Of a stretch of DNA of 64,000 nt, positions 3,060-57,692 are shown in pieces. The stretch covers positions 18,331,787 to 18,395,786 of the forward strand of contig JAHRHZ010000025.1 in assembly GCA_024137785.1 (NCBI GenBank), written 5' to 3'. Each line of letters begins with the position of its first letter. The first letter of the stretch is position 1. Source of the DNA: Ginglymostoma cirratum (lineage: Eukaryota). The translations under genes and the position numbers were made by a program. A model generated the notes under the pieces. It searched no databases. It saw only the letters and a list, made by a program, of their open reading frames with translations, and had not been told where the DNA came from.

Positions 3060-4397
3060 TGTTATAATCCTATTTGATGGTAATACTGGACTAGACAGAT
3101 CTCAGTGCGAAACCTGGCTTGACGCCTATTATTGCAGTTTGAACATCATCGGTGTCAATCACTGAACATATTCACATAAGGTTCCCTATGTACTTTTAAC
3201 AAAAGAACACAAGTTTATTACACAAAAATTAAGAAATGGTATGTATATGACAACTTAGAGAAACTTTATTATAAAGAGCGAAAAAAGATTCAACTCCTTT
3301 CTCACCAATAATCTCGATAGTCATTCAACACTGTTGCAGTATAACTCCTCTTTTCACTCTTTAATTCCTTAAACAAATTGCTCTTTCCGGCCCTTCCCTT
3401 TGATTGCTTAAGCAGCTTTAAACTTCTTTTCAGCTCTGACAACTGAAAAACTTCTTTCCAGTTCAGATGGCCTCAATACTTCTTCCCAATTCTGGAGATT
3501 CTACAAACTTGTCCATCTGCTCAGATAATGATCTTCTGAACACAACTTACCAGTGGTCCTTGATCTTTTATCTCTGCGTCGTAAAACTCAGCCTTGTAAA
3601 CATTCAGCAATCAACCTCAGGTAGCTGATCAAGCCATTTCAATTAGGTCACATGTTTTCTTGGAAAAATTGTCCTTAATTCACTGCTTTAAAAAGCTTTC
3701 TGACCTCTGTTTGAGAAAGCTCAGGAAAGGTGTACAAAATGATCAGAGGTATAGATAGAGTAGACAGCCAAAGACTTTTTCCTTGGTGGAGGTAGCTATT
3801 ACAAGGGGGCATAGATTTAATGTTAGTGGAGGTAGATATAGGGGGGACGTCAGAGGTAGGTTCTTTACTCAGAGAATGGTCGGGGCATGGAATGCACTGC
3901 CGGAGACTGTAGTGGATATGACCTCATTAGGGGCATTTAAGCGGCTATTAGATAGGCATATGGATGATAGTATTAGGTAGGGGTGGAGGTTAGATAGACC
4001 TTAGGATTAGGGTAAAAGTTTGGTACCACATCGTGGACCGAAGGGCCTGTACTGTGCTGTACTGTCCTATGTTCTATGTTCTATGTTCTATGTTCTATGT
4101 TCTAAAGGTCATCTTAACAGAACTGAAAACTAAAATCTATTTTATCTTCAGTTTTGAATCCAATTCCCAAATAGTAATATACCAGAAACCTACATTCCAG
4201 CACATTAAGGATTTATTCTGTCAACCTCTTTAATCATCTTTAAAGCATTAACTTCAGATTTACTTTTGATGAAAATAAAGGTTACCTCCACAAATGAGGT
4301 ATGTATACTGTACACAGACATAACATTTTAAAATTGATGATATCCTTAAAATGAAATAATTCAAAAAGTCCAGAGGAACAGTACAGTGCTTATAATA
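3060..4397. mobile_element. Possible solo-LTR-like element hosting a CR1 insertion
   Basis: Starts TGTTATAA and ends TTATAATA (imperfect terminal inverted repeat); no target-site duplication found. Confidence 0.35.
3732..4103 (+). mobile_element. 5'-truncated CR1 LINE with (TTCTATG)n tail and AAAGGT target-site duplication
   Basis: ORF 3783..3980 TRGHRF...RGDVRGRFFTQRMVGAWNALP is the CR1 ORF2 C-terminus; heptamer tail at 4067-4104; aaaggt at 3726-3731 and 4104-4109. Confidence 0.9.
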
Positions 4398-5253
4398 TTG
4401 TATGGTTTGAAGATGCCTTGGATAAAACATTGAAAAACCAAAGTATCCTCTCAAATGAATGGGAAAGGTCACACTGCAACATTTCAAGCAATATTATTTG
4501 CAATATAAATCTCTCAAGCAAAAATAAAAACAGATTATCTAGTCATTATCACATTGTTGTTTCTGGAAACTTGCTATACACAAGTTGGCTGCCACATTTC
4601 TGACGAATGCAAAAGCAGTGCGATGGGACTTGCTTAGCAGTTGTTAATGTGCTTTAGGCTGCCCTGAGGTTATGAGAGGTGCTATAAATTTAGGCCTTTC
4701 TTCTTTCTCTGCAACACTTTCATGTCAATGTGTCTGGATTAAAACCCTGGTGGCCTTTGATCAGAAGTTAATCAAGATATAGGGTACCTGAAGGTCATAT
4801 CGTGGTCTCATTTCAGCAGTACTAATGGAATTGTGTTTCCCAAATCCTGTCAAGTTGAAAGAATTATGATAACTGTGGAAGTGCAAAAGTTATTGAGGTT
4901 CATTTCCTGAATCAGCAGCGGATATTTTTCTGCTACATTTATGCGTTAAAGTGGACTCTTCAACACTGTTTCTCAACAGCAGGACAGGCCCAGCAGTAGT
5001 GACAGCACAGCGGTATACAGTCAGAAGGGAGTTGTTTTGGGAGTTCTCAACATTACTTCTGGACTCTATGCATCTCATGACGTTAGGCCAAACGTGGGAA
5101 TGGAAAACTCTTGCTGGTTATTGCTCTCACCCCCTCTCACAAAATATAGAGTTGCACCTCCAAGAGGACCAAGATATGCTGTTTACAAACCCAATTGATA
5201 TTTGACAAAAAGGGAGCAGTTAATGGATGAATGGCATGATTTAGCACATATTG

Positions 5254-5740
5254 ATAGGTCAGTACTGCTCCATGTTGAACACCATTTGGAGAAAGTACTC
5301 ACAGTGGCAAGGGCACAGAATGTACTCTGGGTGAGGTACTTCAATGTCCATCACCAAGAGTAGCTCGGCAGCAGCACCACTGATTGAGCTGTTCAAGTTC
5401 TAATGGATGTAACAGCTATACTGCAGCAAGCAGTAAAGGAGCCAACAAGCAAGTAAAACATATTTGATCTCATCCTCACTAATCTGCCTGCCACCGATGC
5501 ATCTGTCCATGACAGTATCAATGAAAATGAGTACTGCACCATCCTTGTGCATACAAGGTCCCATCTTCACACTGTGAATACCCTACATCATGTTGTGTGG
5601 CACTCTGACTGTACCAAATGCAATAGACTTCAAACAGATCGAGCAATTCAAGGCTGAACACCTCCACTCTCCCAGGGGAAACTTGGAATGGGCAATAAAT
5701 GCTGACATGGACATGATGCTCACGTCCCAGGAATGAATAC
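5254..5740 (+). mobile_element. Internally deleted LINE: APE endonuclease remnant joined to the 3' tail
   Basis: Decayed GDFNVHH-like motif (tacttcaatgtccatcac) and LDLILTN-like motif (ttgatctcatcctcactaat), then gggcaataaatgctg...gaatgaata tail. Confidence 0.7.
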
Positions 5741-6029
5741 AAAATATAGAGTTGCACCTCCAAGAGGAAAAAGATACGTTGTTTACAAACCCAATTGGCA
5801 TTTGACAAAAAGGGAGCAGTTTATGGATGAATGGCAAGATTTAGCACACATTGGGAAGGACTGCTTACGACTAAAATGCACAAAGTGAAAGTGGTCAACA
5901 TGGAGTGCAACATCTGAGCAACAAGGAACACTGAAAACAATGCAGGGGAGGAAGGATAAGTTGGGTGAGACTGTACATCATTCAATACCAGGGATTTGGA
6001 CTCAATTCATTCCAGAGGGAGGTTAACTC

Positions 6030-6235
6030 CATTTATTCTAGGGGGAGCTGGGCTTCAATCTGGGGGTGGGCTCAAGTCAGTCTGGGGCTGTGCTTCAGTT
6101 AGTCCACAGGGAGCTGGGCTCCTATCAGTAGGGTGGGTGAGGTGGCAGTTGGAGCAGCTGAGCGCCAGTCAGGGCAGGGGGAGCTGAGCTCTAATTATTC
6201 TGGGGGTGGGAGCTGGGCTCCACTCAGTCCATCAC
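6030..6235. repeat. Degenerate G-rich minisatellite
   Basis: Recurrent GGGAGCTG(G/A)GCT and TCAGTC units near 6043, 6109, 6179 and 6208. Confidence 0.55.
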
Positions 6236-6329
6236 AGACCATCAGTGTTCTCAGCAGTTGGATGATGCTTGCTTCTCCACAGACAAGGAGGCAGTCCCAT
6301 TCCATTTGTCTTGAAGGTGACAGCAGCCA

Positions 6330-7060
6330 TCAATTTCTACACTGGCAACACCGCCGCAAAATCTCATAGTCATCTGCTCTTAAATGTATCCAGATATCTT
6401 TGATGCTCTGCTTGCTAAAGCTCATGAATTTATCAATTTCTTGTTAGATGCAGGCAGTCTGGCAGCCAAGCCTATGGGTTTTGCTGCCATTACAGGGTTT
6501 CCGCAGTTGCAGCTGGTCATCAGCCCAATCAGCAAACAGCTCAATACATAGATCGGAAAGGCTTCCACCTCCATCAGTGTGCATATTATCTGTGTCCACG
6601 GCAGCTGGATAATGCAGGTCTACACATGTTACAGAGTGAGCTGTCATAACATCTACTACATAGGACACTTGCAAGACCCTGTATCTTTTAGCCCTTTATC
6701 TAGGTACATACAGGGAAGGTGTTTGGCAAAGAGGCCTTGAACGTCCTCATACCCCAACTTACGACACATGCCAGGAGTCCACAGACTGACACCAAGCACA
6801 GGTACAGATTTCAACAAGGGCCATTGTAGAGCAGCACATAGGGCTCCTGAAATGAGACTCAGATGCCTGGACTGATCAGGCAATGCAATGCAGTGTACCC
6901 TGGCAGTGCTCTGTATCATTGTTGTTTGTTGTGCTCTCCACAACCCGACTTGACAGAAGGATGTCTTTGGACAAGATGAGATTGAACAGCAGGAGGTGTC
7001 CTCTGAGGAGGAAGGTGAAGCTGAGGATGCTGCCATCATGGCTATGATCCAATGAGCTAG
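6330..7060 (+). pseudogene. Decayed PIF/Harbinger DDE transposase
   Basis: Frameshifted motifs in the expected order: GF-AI-GFPQ (about 6476-6510), RKGFH-S (about 6555), MRLRCLD*SGNAMQ (6852-6893), IIVVCCALHN (6915-6944), then an acidic tail. Confidence 0.8.
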
Positions 7061-7214
7061 AGAGCCAAAAAGACATCTCCCTTCATGGGGACTGAATGAT
7101 ATGAACATGTTTCCTTTACTGTTCTGCCTATCATGGAGCAGGTTGCTGTGAGGCTGCTGCCTCAACATACGTCATTGACTAAGAAGTTTGAGGACTGAGC
7201 CTGAAGAATGGGAG

Positions 7215-8617
7215 TGGGAGGATCCTGCAATACGATTAGGGTTAGGGTCTATGTTGGAACCAACAACATAGACAAGAGTAGGCAAGAGGTCCTGTTCGGG
7301 GAATATCAGGAATTATGAACAAAATTAGTGCGTAAATGTGAGGTGATGCACTTGGGCAGCCACACAAGGCAAGGGAATACATGGTGAATGGTAGGACCTG
7401 GGGACGCACTGAGGATGAGAGGGACCTTGATGTAAATGTCCATCGGTCCATCAAGTTAGCGGGACAAATAGATAAAGTGGCTCAGAAAGCATATGAGTTG
7501 TTCGTCTATATTAGCTGAGGGATGGAGTTCAAGATGCTGGAACTGTATAAAATGTTAATTAGGCCACCACTTGAGTACTGTGTGCAGTTCTGGAATTCAC
7601 ATAATAGGAGGGATGTGATTGCACTGGAGAGGACATAAAGGATATTTATGTTGCTTGGGTTGGGGAGTTTTAGTTATGAACAGAGATTGGATAGACTGGG
7701 GTTGTTTCCCTTGGAGCAGAGGAGACTGAAGGAGGACATGATTGAGATGAATAAAATTATGTGGGACATACATAAGATAAACATCAACAGGGAAGGAAAG
7801 TTTCCCCCTTTAATGAAGGATTCAATGACTGGGCATTTAGATTTAAGGTATGGGCAGGAAGTTTAGAGGGGATGCGGGGAAAACTTTTCTCATTCAGAGG
7901 GTGGTAGGAATCTGGAACTCACTGACTGTAAGGGTGATGCAGACAGAAACCCTCATAACATTTAAGAAGTAAATAAATAAATAGTAAGTAAACCCTCATA
8001 ACATTTAAGGATATAATTAAACTGGAGAGGGTTCAAAAAAGATTTACCAGGATGTTGCTGGAAATGAAAGGTTTGAGGTATAAAAATAGACTGGAAGATG
8101 GGCCTGGTGACCTTACTGAGATTTATAAAATCATGAAGGGCAGAGAATGTCAAGGGTCTTTTCCCTACAGTAGGAGAGTTCAAAACTAGGGGGCATATTT
8201 TTAAGGTGAGAGGAGAAAAATTTAAAAAGGACATGAGGGGCAACCTTTTTACATAGAGAGTCGTTCATGTGTGGAATGAACTGCCAGAGGTAGTGTTGGA
8301 TACAGGTACAGTTACAACATTTAAAAGATATTTGGATATGTACATGGAAAGGAAAGGTTAAGAGGGATAGGGCCAAATGCAAGCAAGTGGGATTAGTTTA
8401 GTTTGGGAACGTGGTCAGTGTGGACTGGTTGGACGGAAGGGTCTGTTTCCGTACTGTATGACTGTATGACTATGACTTTATGCACTCATGACGCCAAGGC
8501 ATACAAGGCTGTGGCTCAAGTGCTGGAAAATGCGATTGGAATAGTAAGGTGGTTGTTTCTGGCCAGCACAAACTTGGTGGGTCTGTGCTGCAGTCCTTTA
8601 TGACTCTTATGACTCTA
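7215..8617 (+). mobile_element. CR1 3' fragment with a second CR1 fragment nested at about 8010-8478
   Basis: C-V-HLG, VRP-LEYCVQFW and SYEQRLDRLGLFPLEQRRL motifs; inner copy ends in a (CTGTATGA)-like tail; host resumes at about 8480 and ends with a TATGACTC tail. Confidence 0.85.
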
Positions 8618-8639
8618 ATTAAAGGGTCTCATGGATTAT

Positions 8640-11600
8640 AATCTTTTGTTTATTACCCGAGCCACATTCAAACTGGCATGGACATAAGAAAATTAGGGAA
8701 GTAAACACATGGCTTAGCGGTGATGGGAGGTCAAAGGGTTTCACTTTGTGGGCACAACATTAGTATCAGGTCAGGAAGATGCCATACGGTCAGGATGGGC
8801 TCCACTTGACCTGATCTGGGAGAAGTGTCTTAGTGGGAAGGGTAAATAGGATAGTCACATGAACTTGCAAATGGATGGGGGCTCAGGGAAGTCAATACAG
8901 TTTCAAAAGTAACGTGACAGAGAATAAAGAAACAGTTTGGAATCCTATTTCTGGTACAGCAGGGATTTGGGAAACTATAAGGAGTGCACTGATTAAACCA
9001 AAAGAGAGAAATAATAAACAGGTGAATAAAGCATCAGTGCTGAGGGACAGGTTCTAGTATATGGCCCACATAAAAGTTCTATATGCAAATACATGGAGTA
9101 TAAGGAATAAGTTAATTGAGCTGCAGGTACAAATTCAAATTGGAGGCTCTGATATAGTAGTATTCCTAAGATATGGCTGCAGGATGGTCAGGACTAGGAA
9201 CTAAATATACCAGGTTATGAGGTTTACAGGATGATCAGGAAAAATGGCAGAGGAGGTTGAGTAGCCTTACTGATTAGAAACGGAATTACTTCAATAGTGG
9301 TGAGAGAAAGTGTTACTCAAAGCCAGAGTAGCATTAATAGGGGATTTTAACTTGAACATAGTTTGGGAGAGGTGAACAAGCACTTATCAGAATGGTCGTG
9401 AATTTCTGAAGTATGTCTAGAATAGTTTCCTATACCAATATGTCCTGGATACAACAAGGGAACAAGAAATATTGGATTTAGCAAAGAGCAAGGTTTAATT
9501 AGTAACCTAATTGTGCATGAACATTTATCAAATAATGATCTGAATATGATCCATTTTACTGTAGCATTTCAAAGCAAAAAGCATGAATCAGTTTTAGATT
9601 TAGGTATGGCCAACATTAACGAGATGAAACAGAAACTCTCCACAGTAGACTGGGGAAATCCGCTAATGTGTAAAACAACTGAAGAACAGTGAAGGATGTT
9701 AAAGAAACGTTTAACACAACACAAAACCAGTTTATAACCCTGAGAGGAAAAAGGTCCACTTCATAGAAAAAAATAAGCTATGGACAACTAAGGAGATAAG
9801 TGACAGCATAAAACTAAAAGAAAGGGCTTTAAATAAATACAAGAATCAGCACAGATCCTGCTAAATGGGAAGGATACAAAGACCAGCAAAGAGCCACTAA
9901 GCAGCTTATAACAGCAATTAAAAGGGATTCTGAAAGGAAATTTACTAGAGACATCAAAATCCAAAAAAGAAATATTATAGTTATGTAAAGGGAAAGCAGG
10001 TGATCAGGATCAGTGTTGGCCCAGGAAAGGCTGAAAGTGGGGAGATTATCAATGACAATAGGGAAATGGCTCACATGTTGAATCATTACGTTGCCTGAGT
10101 ATTTATCATAGAAAAGGAGAATAGCTCGTCCGAAGTTCCATAGAAATTAATAGTAGATTGGGAACAAGGACTGAATAAAATTAACACAAGTAAAACATTG
10201 GTAAAGAGGAACTTAGTGGAATTAGAAGTAACAAATCCCCAGGATGTGACGGTTTCCAGCCAAGGGCTTTAAAGGAAGTTGGGGAGCACACTGCAGATGC
10301 CCTAAGTGTAATCTGTCAGGGTCCCCCAGATACAGGAGTCATCCCTCTGGACTGGAAAATTGCACATGTCACTCTGCATTTTCAGAAGGGTGAAAGAGGA
10401 ACACCAGGGAATTACAGACCAGTTACCCTAACATCTGTGGTGAAGGATTTGTTGGGAATCTATAATCAAAGATGGGGTAATGGGACACATTGAAAAATTT
10501 CAGTTTATCAGGGAGACTCAGAATGGATTCATGATACATAGGTTATGCCCAACAGATCTATTGAGTTTTTTGGAGAAGTGACTAAGGTAACAGAAAGGGA
10601 AATATCAATGGATGTTGTTTATATAGACTTCCAGAAGGTATTTGACAAAGTCCCATATAAGAGATTGTTAAATAAGATAGAAGCTCATGGAATTGAGGCT
10701 AAATTGCTGAAAGGGAATGGTAATTGTTGACTGGCAGGTGACAGAAAGCAGGGATAATCGGTAGGTGCTGAAACTAGTGGGATGTGACCAGTGGTGTCTC
10801 ACAAGGATCTGCTTGAGGGCCTCCATTACTGACATTATTTATTAATGTCTTGGATAATGGCATAGAACGTCATATATCCAAATTTGCTGATGACACAAAA
10901 CTGGGCAGCATTACTATAGATCATGCAGATGATAGCATAAAATTACAAAGGTATATTGATAGACCAAGTAAATAGGCAAAATTGTGACAGATGGAGTTCA
11001 GTGTAAGCATGTGTGAGGTTGTCCATTTTAGACCAAGAAAGGATAGATCAGGGCACTTTCTAGATGGTATGAGATTAATTACAGTGGATGTCCAAGGAGA
11101 TTTGGGGATTCAGGTGCTAGATCTTTAAAATGTCACGAACAGGTGCAGAAAATAATCAAGGAAGCGAACAGAATGCCAGCCTTTGCATCTACAGACTGGA
11201 GCACAAGGGTGTAGAAGTTATGCTGCAATTAAAACCCTGGTTAGACCCCATTTGGAGTACTGTCAGCAGATCTAGGCGTTATATCTTAGGAAGGATACAT
11301 TGGCCTTGGAGGGAGAACAACGTAAGTTTATAAGAATGATACCCGGACTTCAGAGATTACATTATAAGGAGAGATTACACAAATTAGGCCTACTTTCTCT
11401 AGAATTTAGAAGGTTAAGGGGTGATCTAATCAAAGTATTCAATATGTTAGCAGAAAATTACAGGGTAGATAGAGATAAACTATTTCCATTGCTTGGCGAT
11501 TCTAGGACTAGGGGAGCATAGACTGAGAATTAGGTCCAGAAGCACTCCTGCACATAAAGGTTGATAGATGTTTGGAACTCTCTTCCACAAACACTAGTGA

Positions 11601-14451: not shown

Positions 14452-14790
14452 GGGCAGCACGGTGGCTCAGTGGTTAGCACTGCTGCCTCACAGTGTCAGG
14501 GACCTAGCTTTGATTCCAGCCTCAGCCAACAGGCTGTGTAAAGTTTGCACATTCTCCCTGTGTCTGCATGGGTGCTCCAACTTCCTTCTACAGTCCAAAG
14601 ATGTGCAGGTTAGGTGGATTGGCCATGTTGAACTGCCCATAGTGTCCAGGGGTATGCAGGCTAGGTGGATTAGCGATGGGAAATACAAGGTTATGGGGGG
14701 TTCTGGGTTGATTGTTCTTCGGGAGGGTCAGTATGGACTCGATGGAGCAAGTGGTCTGCTTCCAAACTGTAGAGATTCTATGATTCTCTA
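14452..14790 (+). mobile_element. HE1-type tRNA-derived V-SINE
   Basis: A box TGGCTCAGTGG at 14463-14473, degenerate B box at 14506-14516, V-domain gtttgcacattctccctgtgtctgc...tccaaagatgtgcaggttagg, GATTCTAT tail. Confidence 0.88.
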
Positions 14791-15084: not shown

Positions 15085-15420
15085 GAGGAGATGGTGGTGT
15101 AGTTGTAACATTACTGGACTAGTAACTCAGAATCCCTGACTAAGTTTGAACCTCAACATGACAGATGACGAAAGTTCAATTCAATAAAAAGCTGGAATTT
15201 AAAGCTAGCCTAATGGTGACTATATAATCACTGGTGATCGTTGTAAAAACCTATGTGGTTTGTTAACTTTGTTTAGGCAAGGAAATCTGCTAATCCTTAC
15301 CTGGTCATGTGATTCAAGATACACAGCAAGACTCTGAATCACCCTCTGGACAATTAGGGATGGGCAATAAATGCGGTCCAGCTGATATCATGCGGGTCCC
15401 ACAAGCAAATAATAAAAATA
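15085..15420 (+). mobile_element. tRNA-derived SINE sharing the GGGCAATAAATGC LINE tail
   Basis: Homologous along its length to 23105-23460; ends ggacaattagggatgggcaataaatgc. Confidence 0.75.
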
Positions 15421-15534
15421 ATTTCATCACTTAGCCTTCCTCCTTCAAAAGCACCTAGCTAAATAGTCTTTATCTTTGTTGCTACGAAGAAAAAAAATGG
15501 AGTTAAATTAAAAATAGCACACTTTGTCTGAATG

Positions 15535-15715
15535 AGAGATAAAAGGTACTGCAGATGCTGGAGAATCCGAGATAACAAGCATGGGGCTGGATGAACACAG
15601 CAGGTCAAGCAGCATCATAGGAGCAGGAAAACTTGACGTTTCGGGCCTAAACCCTTCATCAGAAATTGCTCCTATGATGCTGCTTGACCTGCTGTGTTCA
15701 TCCAGCCCCTCACTT
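15535..15715. mobile_element. Penelope-like pLTR hairpin element
   Basis: Perfect 43-bp inverted arms at 15583-15625 and 15667-15709; starts with aaaaggtactgcagatgctggagaatc, typical of fish and shark PLE termini. Confidence 0.8.
15631..15666 (-). ncRNA. Minimal type I hammerhead ribozyme motif
   Basis: AUUU-CUGAUGA-A-GGGU-UUAG-GCCC-GAAA-CG-UC^AAGU: conserved core boxes, stem II, palindromic ACGU stem III and stem I all present. Confidence 0.75.
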
Positions 15716-17848
15716 TGTCTGAATGTTGAGTTGATTATTCTTCCATGTTTGCATACAGCAGTGACGATGAGATTATCTTTAATTCCTGGAGACAGCAGGA
15801 CAATGTTGGTGAGTTGGTAACCTGAGAACAGAATAAAATTCAAGACTCCAGAAAGGCCTCTGATGTTTCACCTGCAGTGGTGGCTTCAGTCATGGGAACC
15901 TGGACAATTTGTGTTGTCAGACCTTATTGACCATAGGGTGGGGGTAAATCCTTGTCAGGCCCCTATTCTCCTTCCTCTGCCAGTCCTTTGGAAGTGCTTT
16001 CCAACTGGCCCCACACACCTTCTCCTTCTTTGTAGCCTGGCGAGTGTTTGCTTTTCAAGTAAATATGTAACTGCCTTTTGCAGGGCACTGTTGAATCTCC
16101 TTTCACAGCTCTTTCAGGCGATGTATTCCTGATTATAACAACGTACCGCATTAAAAAAAATCTCAGCTCCTCTGACATGATGAGCACTCTTTGTGTGAAG
16201 AATTTCCTGACTTGGATCCAAAATACTGCTAAGATCTGTTGGCAAAAGACAGAAATTTTCTAAATATTTAATATTCATGTATAAATTCTGCTGATAATAA
16301 GGAAATCCAAATAATTCTGGGTCCATTTCATTCAACAATTTAGTTCTTTTATCTTGATCTGGCGAGGGCAAAAGATTTTCAGATATGTAGCATAGAGCAC
16401 AGGCCATGAGAATGGGTTACTTTCTCAAATTATGTCTAGGAAACCATCATCTGACACTTGACTGATAACACTAAGTTGCAGACACCCAGGCGTACTGCCA
16501 GTGAATTGAATTGAAACCATAGAATTTTGCATGAACCTTCAGTTTTCAATATAATACAAAACGCACAGGCAGTGGGGGATCTGAAAAAGATGGAGTGACT
16601 GGCAGACAGTTTGGTTACTGAGTCAACGTATGGAAGATGTCAATGTAGGACAGAGTCAGCAATGTGTGAGAGTTTGTTGTCAAGGCTGCAGCTCTACTTG
16701 TTGCTTGATTTTACTCTATTGGATTCTAGCTGGAAAAGGCCCTGTTTTCACTGTCTTTAGTTACCTTACCCTAGTGACTTGCAGGTGCAGGGTATGTTTA
16801 ATTGCAGCCAAGATGTAAATATTCAAAACATTATGAGAGGTGAATCCCCACTTACAACTCACATGAAAACAGAAGGATCTTTGCATTTCATACCATGTCT
16901 TTCACAATCTCCAGAGATCTCAAAGCAGTTTACAATAAATGCAGTGCTTTTGAATATGCAGTCCCTATTATAAATTAGGGAAAGAGACACAGCACAGCAA
17001 GATTCTACAGTCAGCAATGTGCTACTGACCAGATACTCTGACATAGTGATGTCCTCTGCTCCTTTTTGAATTGACCCACATCACTGTGCTGTTATTCCAT
17101 ATGGCCTATGTCACAGTGCTATTATGGCAATAATACCAGGATTTGCTCATGTTACGGGGCATTGCATTTTGCAAAATTCTACAAAGTAAATTTCCAATCA
17201 CTGAAACTGCGTGACAAACTGGGGAAAGGAAGAAAAGTTCGAAACGCCCACTTGTGACAATAAAGTGATGCAACTTGAGTGAAGACATAGAATTTGAAAA
17301 CTATACTCATAATGTCCCTGAAAAGTTGTGATATTCAGCCTGCAATGTATGCTGCTCTTGATTGTAGCTCAGATTTACTCTGATGGGAAAGCTGAACCAT
17401 TCCGAAGTTTGAACTCAAATTACTGCCAACATATAAGAAGATTTTTCAAACCAAACTAAATGCTCAGCAAACCATGCCTGTGGACAGTAAAGACTGAGCC
17501 AGGGGAGTGGGGCACAGAGTTTCTCTCTGTCTCTCTGCGCACACAATAGGGCTGACACAAAATTCTTTTTTCCTCATAATTCCCAATATTGCATTATCTA
17601 TCATGAGTATTCCTAGAAAGCAATGCACCTTTTGAATACATTTAGCTGATGTGGAAAGTGGGAACTCTGCATTGTTTTGAAGAAGGAATTGAACTGAATC
17701 GTGACTGGAGCAGAGATCACATCATACAGAAAGTACATACCTTTACACATAACATTTAGTTTATCTGATCTTCTCGAATGGTCTGATTGACTGAAGGGGC
17801 CAAAGAAGAATTTTCTGGAGTATTTGTCCCTTTGTTCAACTGGAACTA

Positions 17849-18090
17849 GGGCAGCATGGTGGCACAATGGTTCGCATTACTGCCTTACAGTGCCAGGGAC
17901 CTAGGTTTGATTCCAGCCTTGGGTGAGTGCCTGCGTGGAGTTTGCACAATGTTTGCATGGGTTTCTGTTGTGTGCTCTCGGTTCCTCCCAAAGACAAACA
18001 GATGTGCAGGTCAGGTAGGCTGGCCATGCTAAATGTTGTGTTATGGGATGGAGTGGGTCTGGGTGGAATGCTCTTCAGATTTTATGACTT
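17849..18090 (+). mobile_element. HE1-type V-SINE (older copy)
   Basis: gggcagcatggtggcacaatggtt...ggtttgattcc...gtggagtttgcac...gatgtgcaggtcagg. Confidence 0.85.
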
Positions 18091-18377
18091 CCTTTCTGTT
18101 TGTTTCTTTTTACCTGTTCCCTAGGAGATAATGTGGCTGTGTAAAGTGGTGGAATGGGTTAGCGGGTTCGGGAGATGTGGTGGGGGTGATGCATGCAGCA
18201 TGGAGAACAATCAAAGGAATGAGCAGGGGACCAGCAAGAGATGAAATTGGGAGAGAGGGAGAATCCATTCATAATGATATAGCTATATACCTGATGGATC
18301 AGCAGAGCTTTCTCTGCCTGTCAGTTTCATATGTTCATGCCAATATAGTTAATGTTAAATAACAGGAAACACAGGGG

Positions 18378-18597
18378 CAAAAACAGAAGTTGCTGGAAAA
18401 GCTCAGCTGATCTGGCAGCATCTGTGAAGAAAAAATCAGAGTTAACGCTTTGGGTCCGGGTCTGAGGAAGGGTCACCGGACCCGAAGCGTTAACTCTGAC
18501 TTTTTCTTCACAGATGCTGCCAGACCTGCTGAGCTTTTCCAGCAACTTCTGTTTTTGTTTCTGATTTCCAGCAACACAGTTCTTTCAGTTTTTTTAA
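18378..18597. mobile_element. Penelope-like pLTR hairpin element (second family)
   Basis: 82-bp inverted arms at 18378-18459 and 18476-18557 with a few mismatches; hammerhead-like core at the apex. Confidence 0.8.
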
Positions 18598-27390: not shown

Positions 27391-27819
27391 ATAATAATGG
27401 ACTCTGTTGGTAAAGTAGCAAAGATGCTTTGGGCTTTTATTTCATCAATTTGTAGATCTAATGGGGCCTGTCCTAGTGACCACAACAGTGACATTCTACA
27501 AAGCAGTTTAAGTTATGCACATTTCTTTCCTCAGGACGCCTAGGTTTTTGTCTCCTCCTCTGGATGTGTTCAGCCACACTGCCCCAGTGAATGTCACACA
27601 GTCTCATTACCAGCTGGCCTCACCATTTACAAATTGGGAAAGGGGGTGGGGGTGGGGACATTTACAGATTTTTAACCGATAATCATTCAAGAATTTCCGT
27701 GAAGCTACAAAAATGGTCAGGATATACCTTCAAAGTATTCTAATACGCTTAAAAAAAAGCCTGGCATCAGAGGATTAAACAAGCAACACCCGAGGCAAGG
27801 GCAATGAGACAACCCTGGA

Positions 27820-30556: not shown

Positions 30557-31534
30557 CTATGAACTTCCTGTCTTATTGTCCTTTTGCATATCAAGGTGCA
30601 CAAAGCCTTCATCTTTATACTCCGGGCTGCTTCCGCTTTGCGTTCTAACTGGGTGACATTGTCCACTTGAAGCAGTCCTGCCAGTACTGGTTTGGAAAGA
30701 GCGGGAAGGATTTGAAGACTCTGATGAACTACTGCTGCTTCCCTGTAAAGGATGTGCAGGTTGCGTGGTGGCTAAAGTGCGGGCTGACTCATAGTAGGTG
30801 CCTGAACACCCAAACTGCTTCTTGCTCAGATCCTTTGAAGATCCTTCTCCACTTGTCGAAGGCTTTGGAGAGTGCTCGTGGCTGGTGCTGGGGCTGTCCA
30901 GTCTGGCTGAGCCAGCATCTTGCCCCGAGTGGCTCAGAGCAGCGATAGTGCTGGGTTCAGAATAAATGGGTACCCTGTATTCCTCCTGTTTGTATGCTGC
31001 TGCTGCTTCTTCTAGCTCAACAGTCTCTGTCCTCTGTAAAGTAACGCTTGGTTTACTACTTCTAGCAAGAGAAGGTACTGTCACAACAGGGGCTGTGGGA
31101 ACTGAAAGCTGCGGCAAAGGCAAAGATTTTGAAGTCATTGCTTCGGCTGATTTGGGTCTCAGCAAAACCCCTTCTTCGAAATGTACTGTGGTCTCTGTCC
31201 TAGTTGCACTAAAGGGATCAAGTGCAGTTGGATTCACAGGAATGCCTGACTGTAGAGAGACTATTGCAGAAGGCACCAAGCCTAAATGACAGCCTGGCCT
31301 TGACTGAACCATTTGAATTCCACCGATTGGAATCATGGGGTAGGGTGTCCTGACCAGCTGCTGAGAGTGCAGGGGAAGATGACTGAAAACATAATCTTGT
31401 GCGGTCCCAGTCAGCCCACTGTAACTTTGTCCTTCCAGTGCAGTTTGAGTATTTCTTGAAGAAAGAAAATGCAAGGCGTGGGATGGTGTACTTGGCTCTT
31501 CGTGTATACTGCGATAGCCCATTCTAGACATCTT
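30557..31534 (-). CDS. HIVEP3: HIVEP3 last coding exon (to TAG stop)
   Basis: ORF 30557..31531 plus one Lys codon after acceptor TTTCTCTACTGTACAG|AAG, phase 0 matching the previous exon. DYVFSHLPLHSQQLVRTPYPMIPIGGIQMVQSRPG and SPKPSTSGE resemble HIVEP3 C-terminal motifs. Confidence 0.9.
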   Translation of the reverse strand, partial: KMSRMGYRSIHEEPSTPSHALHFLSSRNTQTALEGQSYSGLTGTAQDYVFSHLPLHSQQLVRTPYPMIPIGGIQMVQSRPGCHLGLVPSAIVSLQSGIPVNPTALDPFSATRTETTVHFEEGVLLRPKSAEAMTSKSLPLPQLSVPTAPVVTVPSLARSSKPSVTLQRTETVELEEAAAAYKQEEYRVPIYSEPSTIAALSHSGQDAGSARLDSPSTSHEHSPKPSTSGEGSSKDLSKKQFGCSGTYYESARTLATTQPAHPLQGSSSSSSESSNPSRSFQTSTGRTASSGQCHPVRTQSGSSPEYKDEGFVHLDMQKDNKTGSS

Positions 31535-31629
31535 CTGTACAGTAGAGAAAGAATAGAAGATTAATTACATCCTTCTGACAATGAAGTTATTTCTTATTAT
31601 CCTTTTATTACTGATCTCTAGACTCCCTA

Positions 31630-35270: not shown

Positions 35271-35398
35271 TGAGCCTTGATTGTCTGGAAGGCAGAAGAG
35301 GAATTGCAGAGCTGAACTAGATGTGCCTAGTACCAGTAATGGTTAAGCCGTTCTTCACCACTGGGGAGAACTTTATGAAGTACCTTTATCTTTCTTAC

Positions 35399-36528
35399 CA
35401 GTTTAGATTCAGATTGTTCCAGCTCTTTGCTAGATATCCTTGGAGGTAGACCCAATGAAGATGAGCCACTGTGCTTTGCAGGAAAAGAAGAGACTTGGGC
35501 ACTCTGCCAACTTGATGTCAGGCATTTACTTGGCAATTCATCTTTTACTGGGGACAAGTGTCTTATAGATGATTCTTTCTGTACTGGTGACGGTTGTGTC
35601 CTTGGAGAGATCTCTCTTGCTGGAGAAAGGTACCTTGAAGGCAACATTTTCATACCTGGTGACAAAGTTCTCCCAGGTGACACATCTCTTTCTGGTGACA
35701 AACGTGTTTGAGGCGACACTCTCCCAGACGACACTTCGATCCTCGGTGATAGACATCTCTTCGGTGACACTTCTCTGCCTGGAGAGAGACGTCTCCTTGG
35801 TGACATACCTCTCCCTGGTGATGGGCAGCTCCTGGATGATAATTCTCTGCCTGGTGAAAAATGTCTCCGAGGGGACATCTCTTTTGGTGGGGACAAGTGC
35901 TCTTGAACCGATGCCTCTCTTTCTGGCGATGAGTGTCTCCCAGGTGGGATGTCCCCTCCTGGATATAAAAGGCTACTAGGTGATGATTCCCTTTTTGGAG
36001 ACCACGGCCTTCTAGGTGATGTATCTCTTGATGGTGAAACATCTGGACTTAGCACTGTCTGCCTTTTCATCAGAGGATCTCCTTGCATCGGTAAAAATTG
36101 TTCAGCAGATGTCAATGGTGGCATTGAAATACTTCCTTCAGGTTTTGCCTGTGAGACACCATGACACACAGGAACCATGCCTGACTCTGAGGATTTCACT
36201 GGCTTTGCTGTATGAAGTTGAGGTGGTGACATGGGGTAACCTGTCAATGAATAGTGACTGGTTAAACTAGATCCCTGCTTTGAAGTGGTCTCTAGTGACA
36301 GGACGGTAGTTTCCCCTCTGTATGACGTTGATGCAGTCCCAGCTGTTTGTGGACTGGTACTTGCAATCTCTGAAGACTTCACAAACTGTTCCTCTTCCTC
36401 CTCCTCTTCATCATCATCATCATTGTCATCATCATCATCTGACTCCTCAACATCTGAAAACTGATGCTCTTCGGCTGGGTCTGTGCCCTCGATTTCTTCT
36501 GATTTCTTCAACTTTTCTTCACTGGTTC
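35399..36528 (-). CDS. HIVEP3: HIVEP3 penultimate coding exon: acidic tract and S-P-x-R/K repeat region
   Basis: Inside ORF 35327..36559. Acceptor TCTGATTTAG|GA, donor CTG|GTAAGA; 1130 bp = 2+376 codons. Contains EEHQFSDVEESDDDD...EEEE, characteristic of HIVEP2/3. Confidence 0.9.
35540..36040 (-). repeat. Coding 18-nt tandem repeat (28 hexapeptide units, xSPxRx)
   Basis: VSPSRD TSPRRP WSPKRE ... LSPGRE VSPKRC ... LSPVKD; 167 aa with one unit shortened to 5 aa. Confidence 0.9.
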
Positions 36529-38919
36529 CTAAATCAGAGATATGGGAAAAACGCAGCATTAAAAAAAGTTAACATTTCATCGTATTGTCTGACATGGGGA
36601 CAAATTAATGCACTCACCATCTCATTAAAATAACAAGTGAAAGTACACCAACCACCCAGAAATCTTTCATTTTAGAGGGAGCCAAATCCAAGGTTTGACT
36701 CGTCTTATATAGCATCAGTTTTTTAGAAACATGCATTCCAATACTTACAGGAGGTCCCTCAGGACTGTCTATATTCACAAAGGATTCCTTCCCTTTGCTA
36801 TTGACAGAGGCTTGAAAAACAGCACTCTTTATATAAATAACTAGGATGCAGTGGACATAGCTAAAATGAAAATATTATAAACGTTTCAGAAACCTGGCAC
36901 CAAATTTAGTCCCATTCTCTATCTGTTCTACCAAATGAGTCATTTGTGTCTGTAAAATGGCTGTTTTTATTTTACTTCGATGTGGTATTCTGAACCACAA
37001 CCTGAAATTCACTGCTGCTCCTTCGAGTGAGAACAGGCAAGGATTTTACAATGCGGATCTTCTGACAGATAGCACTTCCTGCCTCTAAGTGGCCTCCTCT
37101 GGCCAGACATGACACCTCATTGGCAGAGAGAGAGCTTTGCAATTCATCCAAACCCAAGCTGCTTCTGGAAGAACACTACCCCGCCCCGCCTCAAATGTAA
37201 CCAAAAGTCCTCCAAACATAACTAATAGAAGGCAGAAGCTTCAGTCTAGTGAAGGTCGAGTTCAAGAGGAGATGAGGAGGAACTTCAGCAAAATACATGT
37301 CCAGGTTCTTGCTCCTTTGTGAGATTGCCAGATGCAGGCTCAGTATCAGGAGAGGCTATCCACTTGGTAGGCCAGGTAGCTAAACTGAATGACAAGCCCA
37401 TTTGAGTGGACTAATTCAATTACTCAGGATGTCCCCACTGTGGGGAAATTGAGCAGGTGCCTGGAGGTGGCTTGCTCGTGGCTGGTCATGGGAGAGAAGG
37501 CCAAAAAGCCTCCTGTTTCAACATCTCCCAGCCGCCCTCCTTACTGATGCTGCGGCCAACCTTCTGAAAGATTCTCCCCATCTCAGTGGCTCTGCAGAGG
37601 TGCTCCTCCCATCTTCTTAATTGGATTTAACTTCTTCAGAGGGGCCCTCAAAATCAGGCCTGTAACCGCAGGAACCAACTTGTCCGTCCCCCCCATCCCC
37701 TCACTACAAATTGGATCCAGAGGTGGGCTCTTAATTGGCTGCCTCTCATAAAATCTCAAATGGACTTTTGACATTCAGGAGTGGAGAACTGATACTGAGT
37801 CTCTCTCACATTCTAAACAGAAGATTCTGGCCATTGTTTCAAATCAGAGTCTTTTCCTCACACTGGCTTCATTGTTTGTTCAGTCCAGCATTTACAGTAG
37901 ACACCAACAGAAAGCAGAACAGTTCAGGAAGAGCCACATAAATTCCAAAGCCGTGATGTTTGTCCAAAAGCAACAAACCTTTTTATTCTGTCAGGGTCAT
38001 GAATCAGTGTCCTTTGAAGCCCTCTTTTCAGCTGTCAAACGCACAATAGGAAACTCGCAGACAGTCTCAGACGATCCCTGTGTTTACAATTGTCTATTTA
38101 TAACTTTCAATGTCGCAGCACATCCCCTGAATCTTTAGGCTGGTGCTGCTGATATTTTTAATGTGGGATGCTTGGAGCTATTCGGAACAAGGCAGCCCAT
38201 TTGACCAGCAGCCCCTTCCACCACCTTTGAAGCTCCCTCCCCCATTACAGAGGCAGCCGTGTGTGCTATCTATGAGATGCCCTGCAGTAATTCAGCAAGG
38301 CTCATTTGACAGGACTCTTCTCCAACGAAGCGGTGGCATCTATCATCTGGGAAAACACTGGAAACCATCATCTGAAAGTTTGCCTCTTTTAAGCCACATG
38401 CCATCCTGACTTGGAGCTAGAACTCAGTTGGATCAAAATCGTAGAACTCACCTTCCTAACAGCACCCAGACTCCAGATTCAAGAAAGCAGCTCACCACCA
38501 TCACCTTCACCAGCATAATTAAAGGATGGGCAATGAATGCTGTTCTAGTCAACAACACCCACATTTAATTTGTTCACTGAACAACAAAATTACATAGATT
38601 AAAGCATTCTGTTCCTGTATTGTTGATTCTAATAGGTTTGTGTACCACCTGGGAATCCTCCCACCTTGTTAGGGATTCCTTTTATTCCTTTATCACTCGA
38701 GCATTTAGGTAACGTTTTCTGAAAGGAACCTATTCTTTTTGCCCCAGACGCCACTTCTAGTAATGAATTCTATATTATAATCATATTCCGAAGTAAAAAC
38801 ACGTTTCTTCTGAATTCTGCTATGGATTTATTAATAATTACCTTATTAGTTATGGCCATAAATATTATGGTTTTTCATAACTTTCAATAAGCATGGAATA
38901 ATAGTTGTATTATTGCGAA

Positions 38920-48142: not shown

Positions 48143-48246
48143 AGATAACAAGCATGGGGCTGGATGAACACAGCAGGTCAAGCAGCATCATAGGAGCAGG
48201 AAAACTTGACATTTCGGGCCTAAACCCTTCATCAGAAATCTGTACA
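48143..48246. mobile_element. Young Penelope-like pLTR fragment with hammerhead motif and 10-bp flanking duplication
   Basis: 48143-48239 matches 15570-15666 at 96 of 97 nt; GATTACTGTA at 48134-48143 and 48247-48256. Confidence 0.85.
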
Positions 48247-57329: not shown

Positions 57330-57692
57330 GTAGACAAATGAGAGGCTGGAAGATCACAGCAAGCCAGGCAGCATCTGGAGAAAAGGAGCAATCAGCATTT
57401 CGTGTATTACCCTTCTTCAGGACTCTAAAGAGCGGAAAGGTTGAAGAGATCATAGCACTGTGGCAGTGAGAAAGGGACTCACTGAGTTCATGTCTGAGGG
57501 AGGCAGAGAACATCTTCAAAGTGGCCATCCTTTGAAGATACTTTGCAGCCGTAAAAGTTGGTCAGAGTCAGAAAAACTGCAAATGCTGGAATCCATGGTA
57601 GACAAACAGGAGGCGGGAAGAACACAGCAAGCCATGCAGCATCTGGAGGAAAGGAGCAGTCAACATTTTGGGTATCAGCCTTCTTTAGGACT
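57330..57692 (-). mobile_element. Penelope-like partial tandem repeat with two decayed hammerhead motifs
   Basis: About 95-bp direct repeat (57331-57424 vs 57599-57692) separated by about 175 bp; CTGAAGA..GAAA and CTAAAGA..AAAA cores on the minus strand. Confidence 0.7.

Follow-up and report, generated by a model that had tools for sequence, protein, structure and literature searches.

The hairpin in the analysed window (the whole 64,000-nucleotide stretch of Ginglymostoma cirratum DNA given above) is real but ordinary, being built of two short fragments from the end of a young and very abundant Penelope-type element, placed head to head. The insert holds two 5′-truncated ends of this Penelope-like element (PLE) within one 15-bp target-site duplication (TSD), and it probably stems from one insertion event primed by both ends of the cut DNA. 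It is young, real and of a known kind, and by itself the locus carries little weight, as the genome holds tens of thousands of such stubs. Of greater weight is the family, whose young and abundant copies permit the ends of insertions to be mapped at base resolution.

Structure of the insert

The insert spans 176 bp (15535-15710) and is flanked by 15-bp TSDs (Table 1). Read on the minus strand, it opens with an inverted piece of 43 nt, which shares 2 nt with the 134-nt piece that comes next. Positions along the 134-nt piece are numbered nt 1-134, which places the predicted hammerhead cut between nt 34 and 35 and identifies the inverted piece as nt 44-86 of the longer one. The arms are 100% complementary without a single mismatch and are separated by 41 nt, and the fold of 15570-15720 is far more stable than expected (z = -16.0, with 0 of 200 shuffles equally stable), in agreement with the mismatch-free 43-bp inverted arms reported in the initial annotation. 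The unit had been delimited there as 15583-15709, which captured the hairpin correctly but left out the tail side (15535-15582) and the 15-bp TSD. Its description of the hairpin as young also holds, given that 39 of the 40 best-scored family copies are 99-100% identical, and the perfection of the arms is explained by the youth of the family.

Table 1. Features of the insert and its flanks, in window positions
Feature	Position	Strand	Evidence
TSD, left copy, 15 bp	15520..15534	+	same 15-mer as 15711-15725
134-nt 5′-truncated PLE end piece (nt 1-134: hammerhead, downstream pLTR, tail)	15535..15668	-	near-identical copies; longer copies join RT and GIY-YIG coding sequence
Optional tail, about 36 nt (element nt 99-134)	15535..15570	-	3′-end classes of 100 copies
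Arm within main copy (element nt 44-86)	15583..15625	-	complementarity of arms
5-nt bulge (element nt 39-43), missing from inverted copy	15626..15630	-	sequence
Minimal type I hammerhead (predicted cut 15635/15634)	15631..15666	-	stem I, CUGAUGA, extra A, stem II, GAAA, palindromic ACGU, GUC
Microhomology, 2 nt, at head-to-head junction	15667..15668		junction overlap
Second copy: inverted, tail-less, 5′-truncated (element nt 44-86)	15667..15709	+	arm match
Single base fitting neither element continuation nor TSD	15710		sequence
TSD, right copy	15711..15725	+	same 15-mer as left

The inverted arm is most improbably an assembly artefact at a high-copy repeat. Many pairs in the assembly do carry N runs at the junction, and among the pieces listed for four sequencing runs (assembled contigs) none spans the locus; however, the 64-kb window contains no N, the 15-bp TSD encloses both copies and falls within the 12-19 bp range of other pairs, and at 18378-18557 the window holds an older hairpin from a different PLE family, whose arms match at 95% and whose TSD is 11 bp. 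In the contigs of the four runs the repeat is covered and its unique flanks are almost bare, which makes them uninformative on expression or an empty site.

The parent element

A genome search returned 658 candidates. Among the best 40, which were scored, one besides this locus matches across the junction region, at 90%, and the others match the 134-nt piece only, at 99-100%. Exact matches in the 4.36-Gb genome amounted to 26,131 for the hammerhead 40-mer, 57,400 for the downstream 35-mer and 854 for the tail running into the element body, with 0 for the reversed-pattern controls. In those 854 matches the tail continues into shared body sequence, so that the end sequence also precedes the body, as in a pLTR.

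Longer copies extend upstream into a pyrimidine-rich region and into GIY-YIG and RT coding sequence. The RT was found in one locus (L171), continuous with the same end (PF00078, E 7e-7, 29.5 bits, 0.1 bit under the cut-off of 29.6), and the GIY-YIG domain (PF01541) in two others, L172 and L169 (23.2 and 21.2 bits against a cut-off of 22.6; E 9e-5 for the match above it). The RT pieces are 97% identical; no intact full-length ORF was seen in the copies examined, and a PDB search with the RT piece gave 0 matches. An RT plus a C-terminal endonuclease of the GIY-YIG type linked to the end, an optional 30-40 bp tail, an inverted truncated copy and a TSD are thus all present, and judged from sequence the element of origin is a young endonuclease-bearing (EN+) Penelope-like retrotransposon. 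Translations of L169 and L172 also contain a C-x4-C-x2-C linker before the endonuclease, of the form CX2-5CxxC between RT and endonuclease that the accessible part of PMC8557442 gives as a trait of Neptune and Nematis, which points to one of these two clades.

Two further observations concern the family. At three loci (L175, L177 and L173, on contigs C1, C2 and C289) a second end piece begins at nt 3-5 immediately after internal element sequence, and these composites suggest template jumps at the common 5′ point. At four others (L003, L020, L080 and L142) young copies sit inside other PLE ends, possibly reflecting a target preference.

Anatomy and origin of head-to-head insertions

To describe such insertions we took the downstream 35-mer as a 3′ anchor and used its first 100 exact matches on one contig (C1). 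Their 3′ ends form two classes, at nt 87-110 (49 copies) and at nt 125 and beyond (51 copies). Of these matches, 38 lie in 28 head-to-head pairs, which are over-sampled since either arm can match the anchor, and 62 are single. A tailed copy is combined with a tail-less one in 26 of the 28 pairs, the remaining two being tail/tail. The singles comprise 33 tailed and 29 tail-less copies, so that mixed pairs should make up 50% if copies paired at random, against which the 26/28 observed have P = 1.4e-6. A TSD of 12-19 bp encloses 23 of the 28 pairs and none was detected in the other five; an N run between the arms hides the junction in 16/28.

A second sample was drawn from the narrow-loop hairpin pattern, which occurs 159 times genome-wide. 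The first 30 of these plus this locus were taken and one was dropped for want of an alignment, leaving 30, of which 22 combine a tailed with a tail-less arm, seven have an arm scored short (some being cut by N runs) and one has two tail-less arms; a TSD of 7-17 bp was found in 20. The outer ends of the tail-less arms cluster near nt 95-100 rather than being scattered. At this locus the tail is on the 5′-longer copy, and the outer end of the other arm, nt 86, lies just below the 87-110 range of the C1 sample.

The layout itself, an inverted truncated copy with a one-sided tail, is described for PLEs in the available sections of PMC8557442 and PMC3846280, and PMC11167929 reports, in its accessible text, that a PLE protein cuts and extends the two strands of the target, starting at two sites on the RNA between which the tail lies. 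Inverted pLTRs, tails and minimal hammerheads are likewise already published PLE features. Given the tail asymmetry of the pairs and the published two-strand extension, two-ended priming is the best inference. One cut end would have primed at the distal start (nt 134, with the tail) and run to the region of the RNA just before the hammerhead (nt 1-3), while the other would have primed near the proximal start (about nt 86-100, without the tail) and halted at nt 44, and the cDNAs would then have been joined end to end through the 2-nt microhomology. The hammerhead would be a passenger of the pLTR.

It is rather unlikely that the second arm was instead produced by the first cDNA, or by an antisense template of the kind proposed for rotifer PLEs, folding back and priming its own copying. 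Antisense-template self-priming is the explanation offered for head-to-head PLE repeats in the portion of PMC3846280 at hand, the arm here lies wholly inside the longer copy with 0 mismatches, many hairpins show junction overlaps of 1-3 nt, and the position of the tail on the longer copy makes this locus compatible with it. However, the junction here contains no palindrome, and the clustered outer ends of the tail-less arms also speak against fold-back. The tail, moreover, is on the 5′-shorter arm, and absent from the longer copy, in 15 of the 22 tail/no-tail hairpin pairs and in 5 of the 12 gap-free C1 pairs; fold-back of one cDNA can account for neither set.

The initial annotation had viewed the hairpin as a retrozyme- or MITE-like derivative. 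A MITE has inverted repeats at its termini, a short TSD and many copies of the same unit. The copy count that it proposed as a check places the junction 29-mer of this hairpin exactly once in the 4.36-Gb genome, against the 26,131 hammerhead 40-mers, and many different junctions occur among 100 listed of the 159 narrow-loop hairpins. Such hairpins are therefore rebuilt at each insertion and do not spread as a MITE or retrozyme. Moreover, the repeats are not terminal, 48 bp of element sequence, including the tail, lying outside the left arm and within the 15-bp TSD, and the locus has a single hammerhead motif in place of tandem, head-to-tail units that each contain one; in the available parts of PMC7229834 and bioRxiv 10.64898/2026.07.22.740005, non-LTR retrozymes are described as tandemly repeated. 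Intact core boxes, perfect arms and a TSD of its own would suit a mobile, non-autonomous unit that is transcribed, self-cleaving and spreading as such, and a few junction strings do recur among the 100 listed hairpins; these strings are short and lie at common end points, where they may have originated independently. We regard such a unit as highly improbable, and two-ended priming of a PLE insertion remains the preferred account.

Hammerhead motif and its predicted activity

On the minus strand, the core comprises the 5′ strand of stem I (15666-15663), CUGAUGA (15662-15656), an extra A (15655), stem II with its loop (15654-15643), GAAA (15642-15639), C17 (15635) and the 3′ strand of stem I (15634-15631). 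The complete core boxes, stem II, GUC and cut site had been recognised previously and are confirmed by the sequence. The assignment to PLE-type minimal hammerheads, predicted to depend on dimers, with a palindromic ACGU stem III and an extra A after A9, holds as well. This A is present in 214 of 219 motifs within the fetched DNA, most loci of which were fetched for this PLE family. An Rfam search, also proposed with the initial annotation, gave 0 matches in the window at the gathering score, and no hammerhead was among the 18 matches that 15400-15900 gave at E<=10, so the call rests on the motif and on the description of minimal hammerheads in the accessible part of PMC4209133. The miRNA models among the Rfam matches were set aside as generic hairpin matches far below gathering scores.

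Pair probabilities within the hairpin are 0.90-1.00 for stem II and below 0.08 for stem I, so that folding does not favour the suggested extension of stem I by the arms. A loop-less stem III cannot form in a monomer, and a double hammerhead requires intermolecular pairing of both stem I and the arms. The calculated energies, which ignore tertiary contacts and protein help, are -191.1 kcal/mol for the double hammerhead and -211.8 for a misfolded dimer; two separate monomer hairpins come to -201.6, which is 10.5 kcal/mol below the double hammerhead. On this modelling, trapping of the RNA by the arms is more likely than activation of the hammerhead, and the motif in this copy is predicted to be inactive, the lone hairpin RNA being unable to close stem III and trapped as a monomer. 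The available text of PMC4209133 describes motifs with such a loop-less stem III as having no monomer cleavage and low dimer cleavage, and that of PMC11167929 states that a PLE hammerhead needs protein help to cut. In the best fold of the 134-nt piece the tail pairs at long range with the 5′ core box; with z = -1.16 this pairing was not used.

The 3′ boxes carry 0 changes at 324 sites, against 21 at 2106 other non-CpG sites (P = 0.10; 81 of the 100 copies used, the 5′ box being confounded by truncation). Dead-on-arrival copies are expected to decay neutrally, which makes box conservation, proposed earlier as a test, a weak one. Other hammerhead families among the fetched loci keep the core, the extra A and a palindromic stem III (ACGU or AGCU) and differ in stem II sequence; on few copies, this suggests selection between families.

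5′ ends of copies around the predicted cut

In the C1 sample, 62 copies have no N beside the 5′ end; the start lies immediately ahead of the hammerhead, at nt 3-5, in 14 of them and at nt 35 in 0, indicating that most copies in this sample derive from uncut RNA. A splice acceptor at the common start was rejected, as no AG precedes nt 3-5 in longer copies. A second cluster in the same sample, at nt 10-15 (10/62), often falls where the self-complementary stretch of the 5′ core box lets the arms overlap.

Genome-wide, exact matches beginning at a given base were counted, and samples of them were classed as truncated or point-mutated (Table 2).

Table 2. 5′ ends of copies around the predicted cut (nt 34/35), scaled for eligible flank bases with an assumed 29% A/T and 21% C/G
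Start (nt)	Matches	Truncated in sample	Dropped	Scaled
33 (C/T flank only)	168	13/29	1 (N-adjacent)	151
34	283	18/49	2	146
35	821	47/67	3	729
36 (C/T only)	341	19/27	3	480
37	757	6/26	4	246
40	946	23/30	0	1022

The 95% ranges are separate for starts 34 (93-206) and 35 (600-839). At the predicted cut, 5′ ends are about five times as common as 1-2 nt upstream but only as common as 5 nt downstream, the rate at start 40, whose pattern is shorter and admits more subfamilies, being as high as that at start 35 or higher. An A precedes 24 of the 47 truncated copies at start 35, so that microhomology to A-runs contributes, and a pause of the RT at the structured core could yield a similar step. The step corresponds to about 576 copies, near 1% of the 57,400, and as a sign of cleavage it is a lead, not a result. 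We advance only tentatively, and with some doubt, the reading that these insertions record the germline mechanism of the PLE: that cut ends are primed coordinately at two RNA starts (26/28 pairs), and that the roughly fivefold step at the scissile bond marks in vivo hammerhead cleavage, with about 1% of copies derived from cut RNA.

Genomic context

A HIVEP-type gene lies upstream of the insert on the minus strand, with a zinc-finger exon near 53.4 kb, ORFs at 35327-36568 and 30557-31564 (0 Pfam families for either) and AATAAA at 27436 and 27840, which upholds the previously noted distance of about 12 kb between the predicted end of the gene and the insert on the same strand. The exact hammerhead occurs about every 170 kb in the genome and a second copy of the family lies within the gene span, so the position of the insert needs no special explanation. 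That copy (48143-48239), on the strand of the gene, is single, tail-less and 99% identical, with a 10-bp TSD, and one change breaks its ACGU palindrome.

The window holds other repeats as well. The older hairpin at 18378-18557 has 82-nt arms, TSD copies at 18367 and 18599 and a plus-strand hammerhead in which GAAA has become GAAG. Two older PLE end fragments lie as direct repeats about 270 bp apart at 57341-57643, and a tail fragment is found at the window start (1-26). Two SINE-like copies (14452-14683 and 17849-18033), 80% alike over 100 nt, presumably resemble the shark HE1/V-SINE type.

Comparison with known systems

The copy ends of this family may bear on the role of PLE hammerheads. In the accessible text of PMC11167929, cleavage by the hammerhead is unnecessary for insertion in vitro and no RNA-seq reads end at the cut. 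With 57,400 exact copies of the 35-mer, copy ends can be mapped to the single base, and two-ended priming and in vivo cleavage can be tested without new experiments. A literature search, with most subscription papers outside its reach, returned no paper on PLE hammerheads of cartilaginous fish or on copy ends at the cut site.

The insertions resemble those of EN+ PLEs, as far as these are described in the available parts of PMC8557442 and PMC3846280, in the head-to-head inverted and truncated 5′ copy, the one-sided tail of 30-40 bp, the TSD around the whole unit and a parent with RT and C-terminal GIY-YIG. At this locus, by contrast, the two copies are stubs of 134 and 43 nt lacking any ORF, and the TSDs of the family measure 12-19 bp against 8-10 bp in the rotifer examples of the same sources.

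The motif shares with the minimal type I hammerheads of metazoan PLEs, in the sections of PMC4209133 at hand, CUGANGA and GAAA, the extra base between 9 and 10.1, the G10.1-C11.1 pair, a 4-bp stem I, a palindromic 15.2-16.2 and the absence of loop 3. The stem II of the present motif, at 4 bp, is shorter than the 7-8 bp of the Schistosoma families, and the 26,131 identical motifs contrast with about 4,000-9,000 varied ones in coelacanth and Xenopus. The metazoan motifs occur mostly singly, with opposite-strand pairs 100-700 bp apart, and cartilaginous fish are unnamed in those sections of the survey.

Poseidon of Anolis carolinensis, in the available portion of PMC11167929, likewise has 3′ ends in two classes, separated by about 35 nt, downstream of the hammerhead, and inserted copies that mostly derive from uncut RNA, and it extends both target strands in vitro. 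Unlike Poseidon, the family here has the C-x4-C-x2-C linker before the endonuclease, and its first in-frame ATG seen lies after the tail and not in stem II. Finally, non-LTR retrozymes, according to the accessible parts of PMC7229834 and bioRxiv 10.64898/2026.07.22.740005, are also non-coding, carry type I hammerheads and are related to PLE pLTRs; they form head-to-tail tandem arrays with mostly canonical hammerheads and are expressed as circles, whereas the present locus is one head-to-head insert with one minimal motif.
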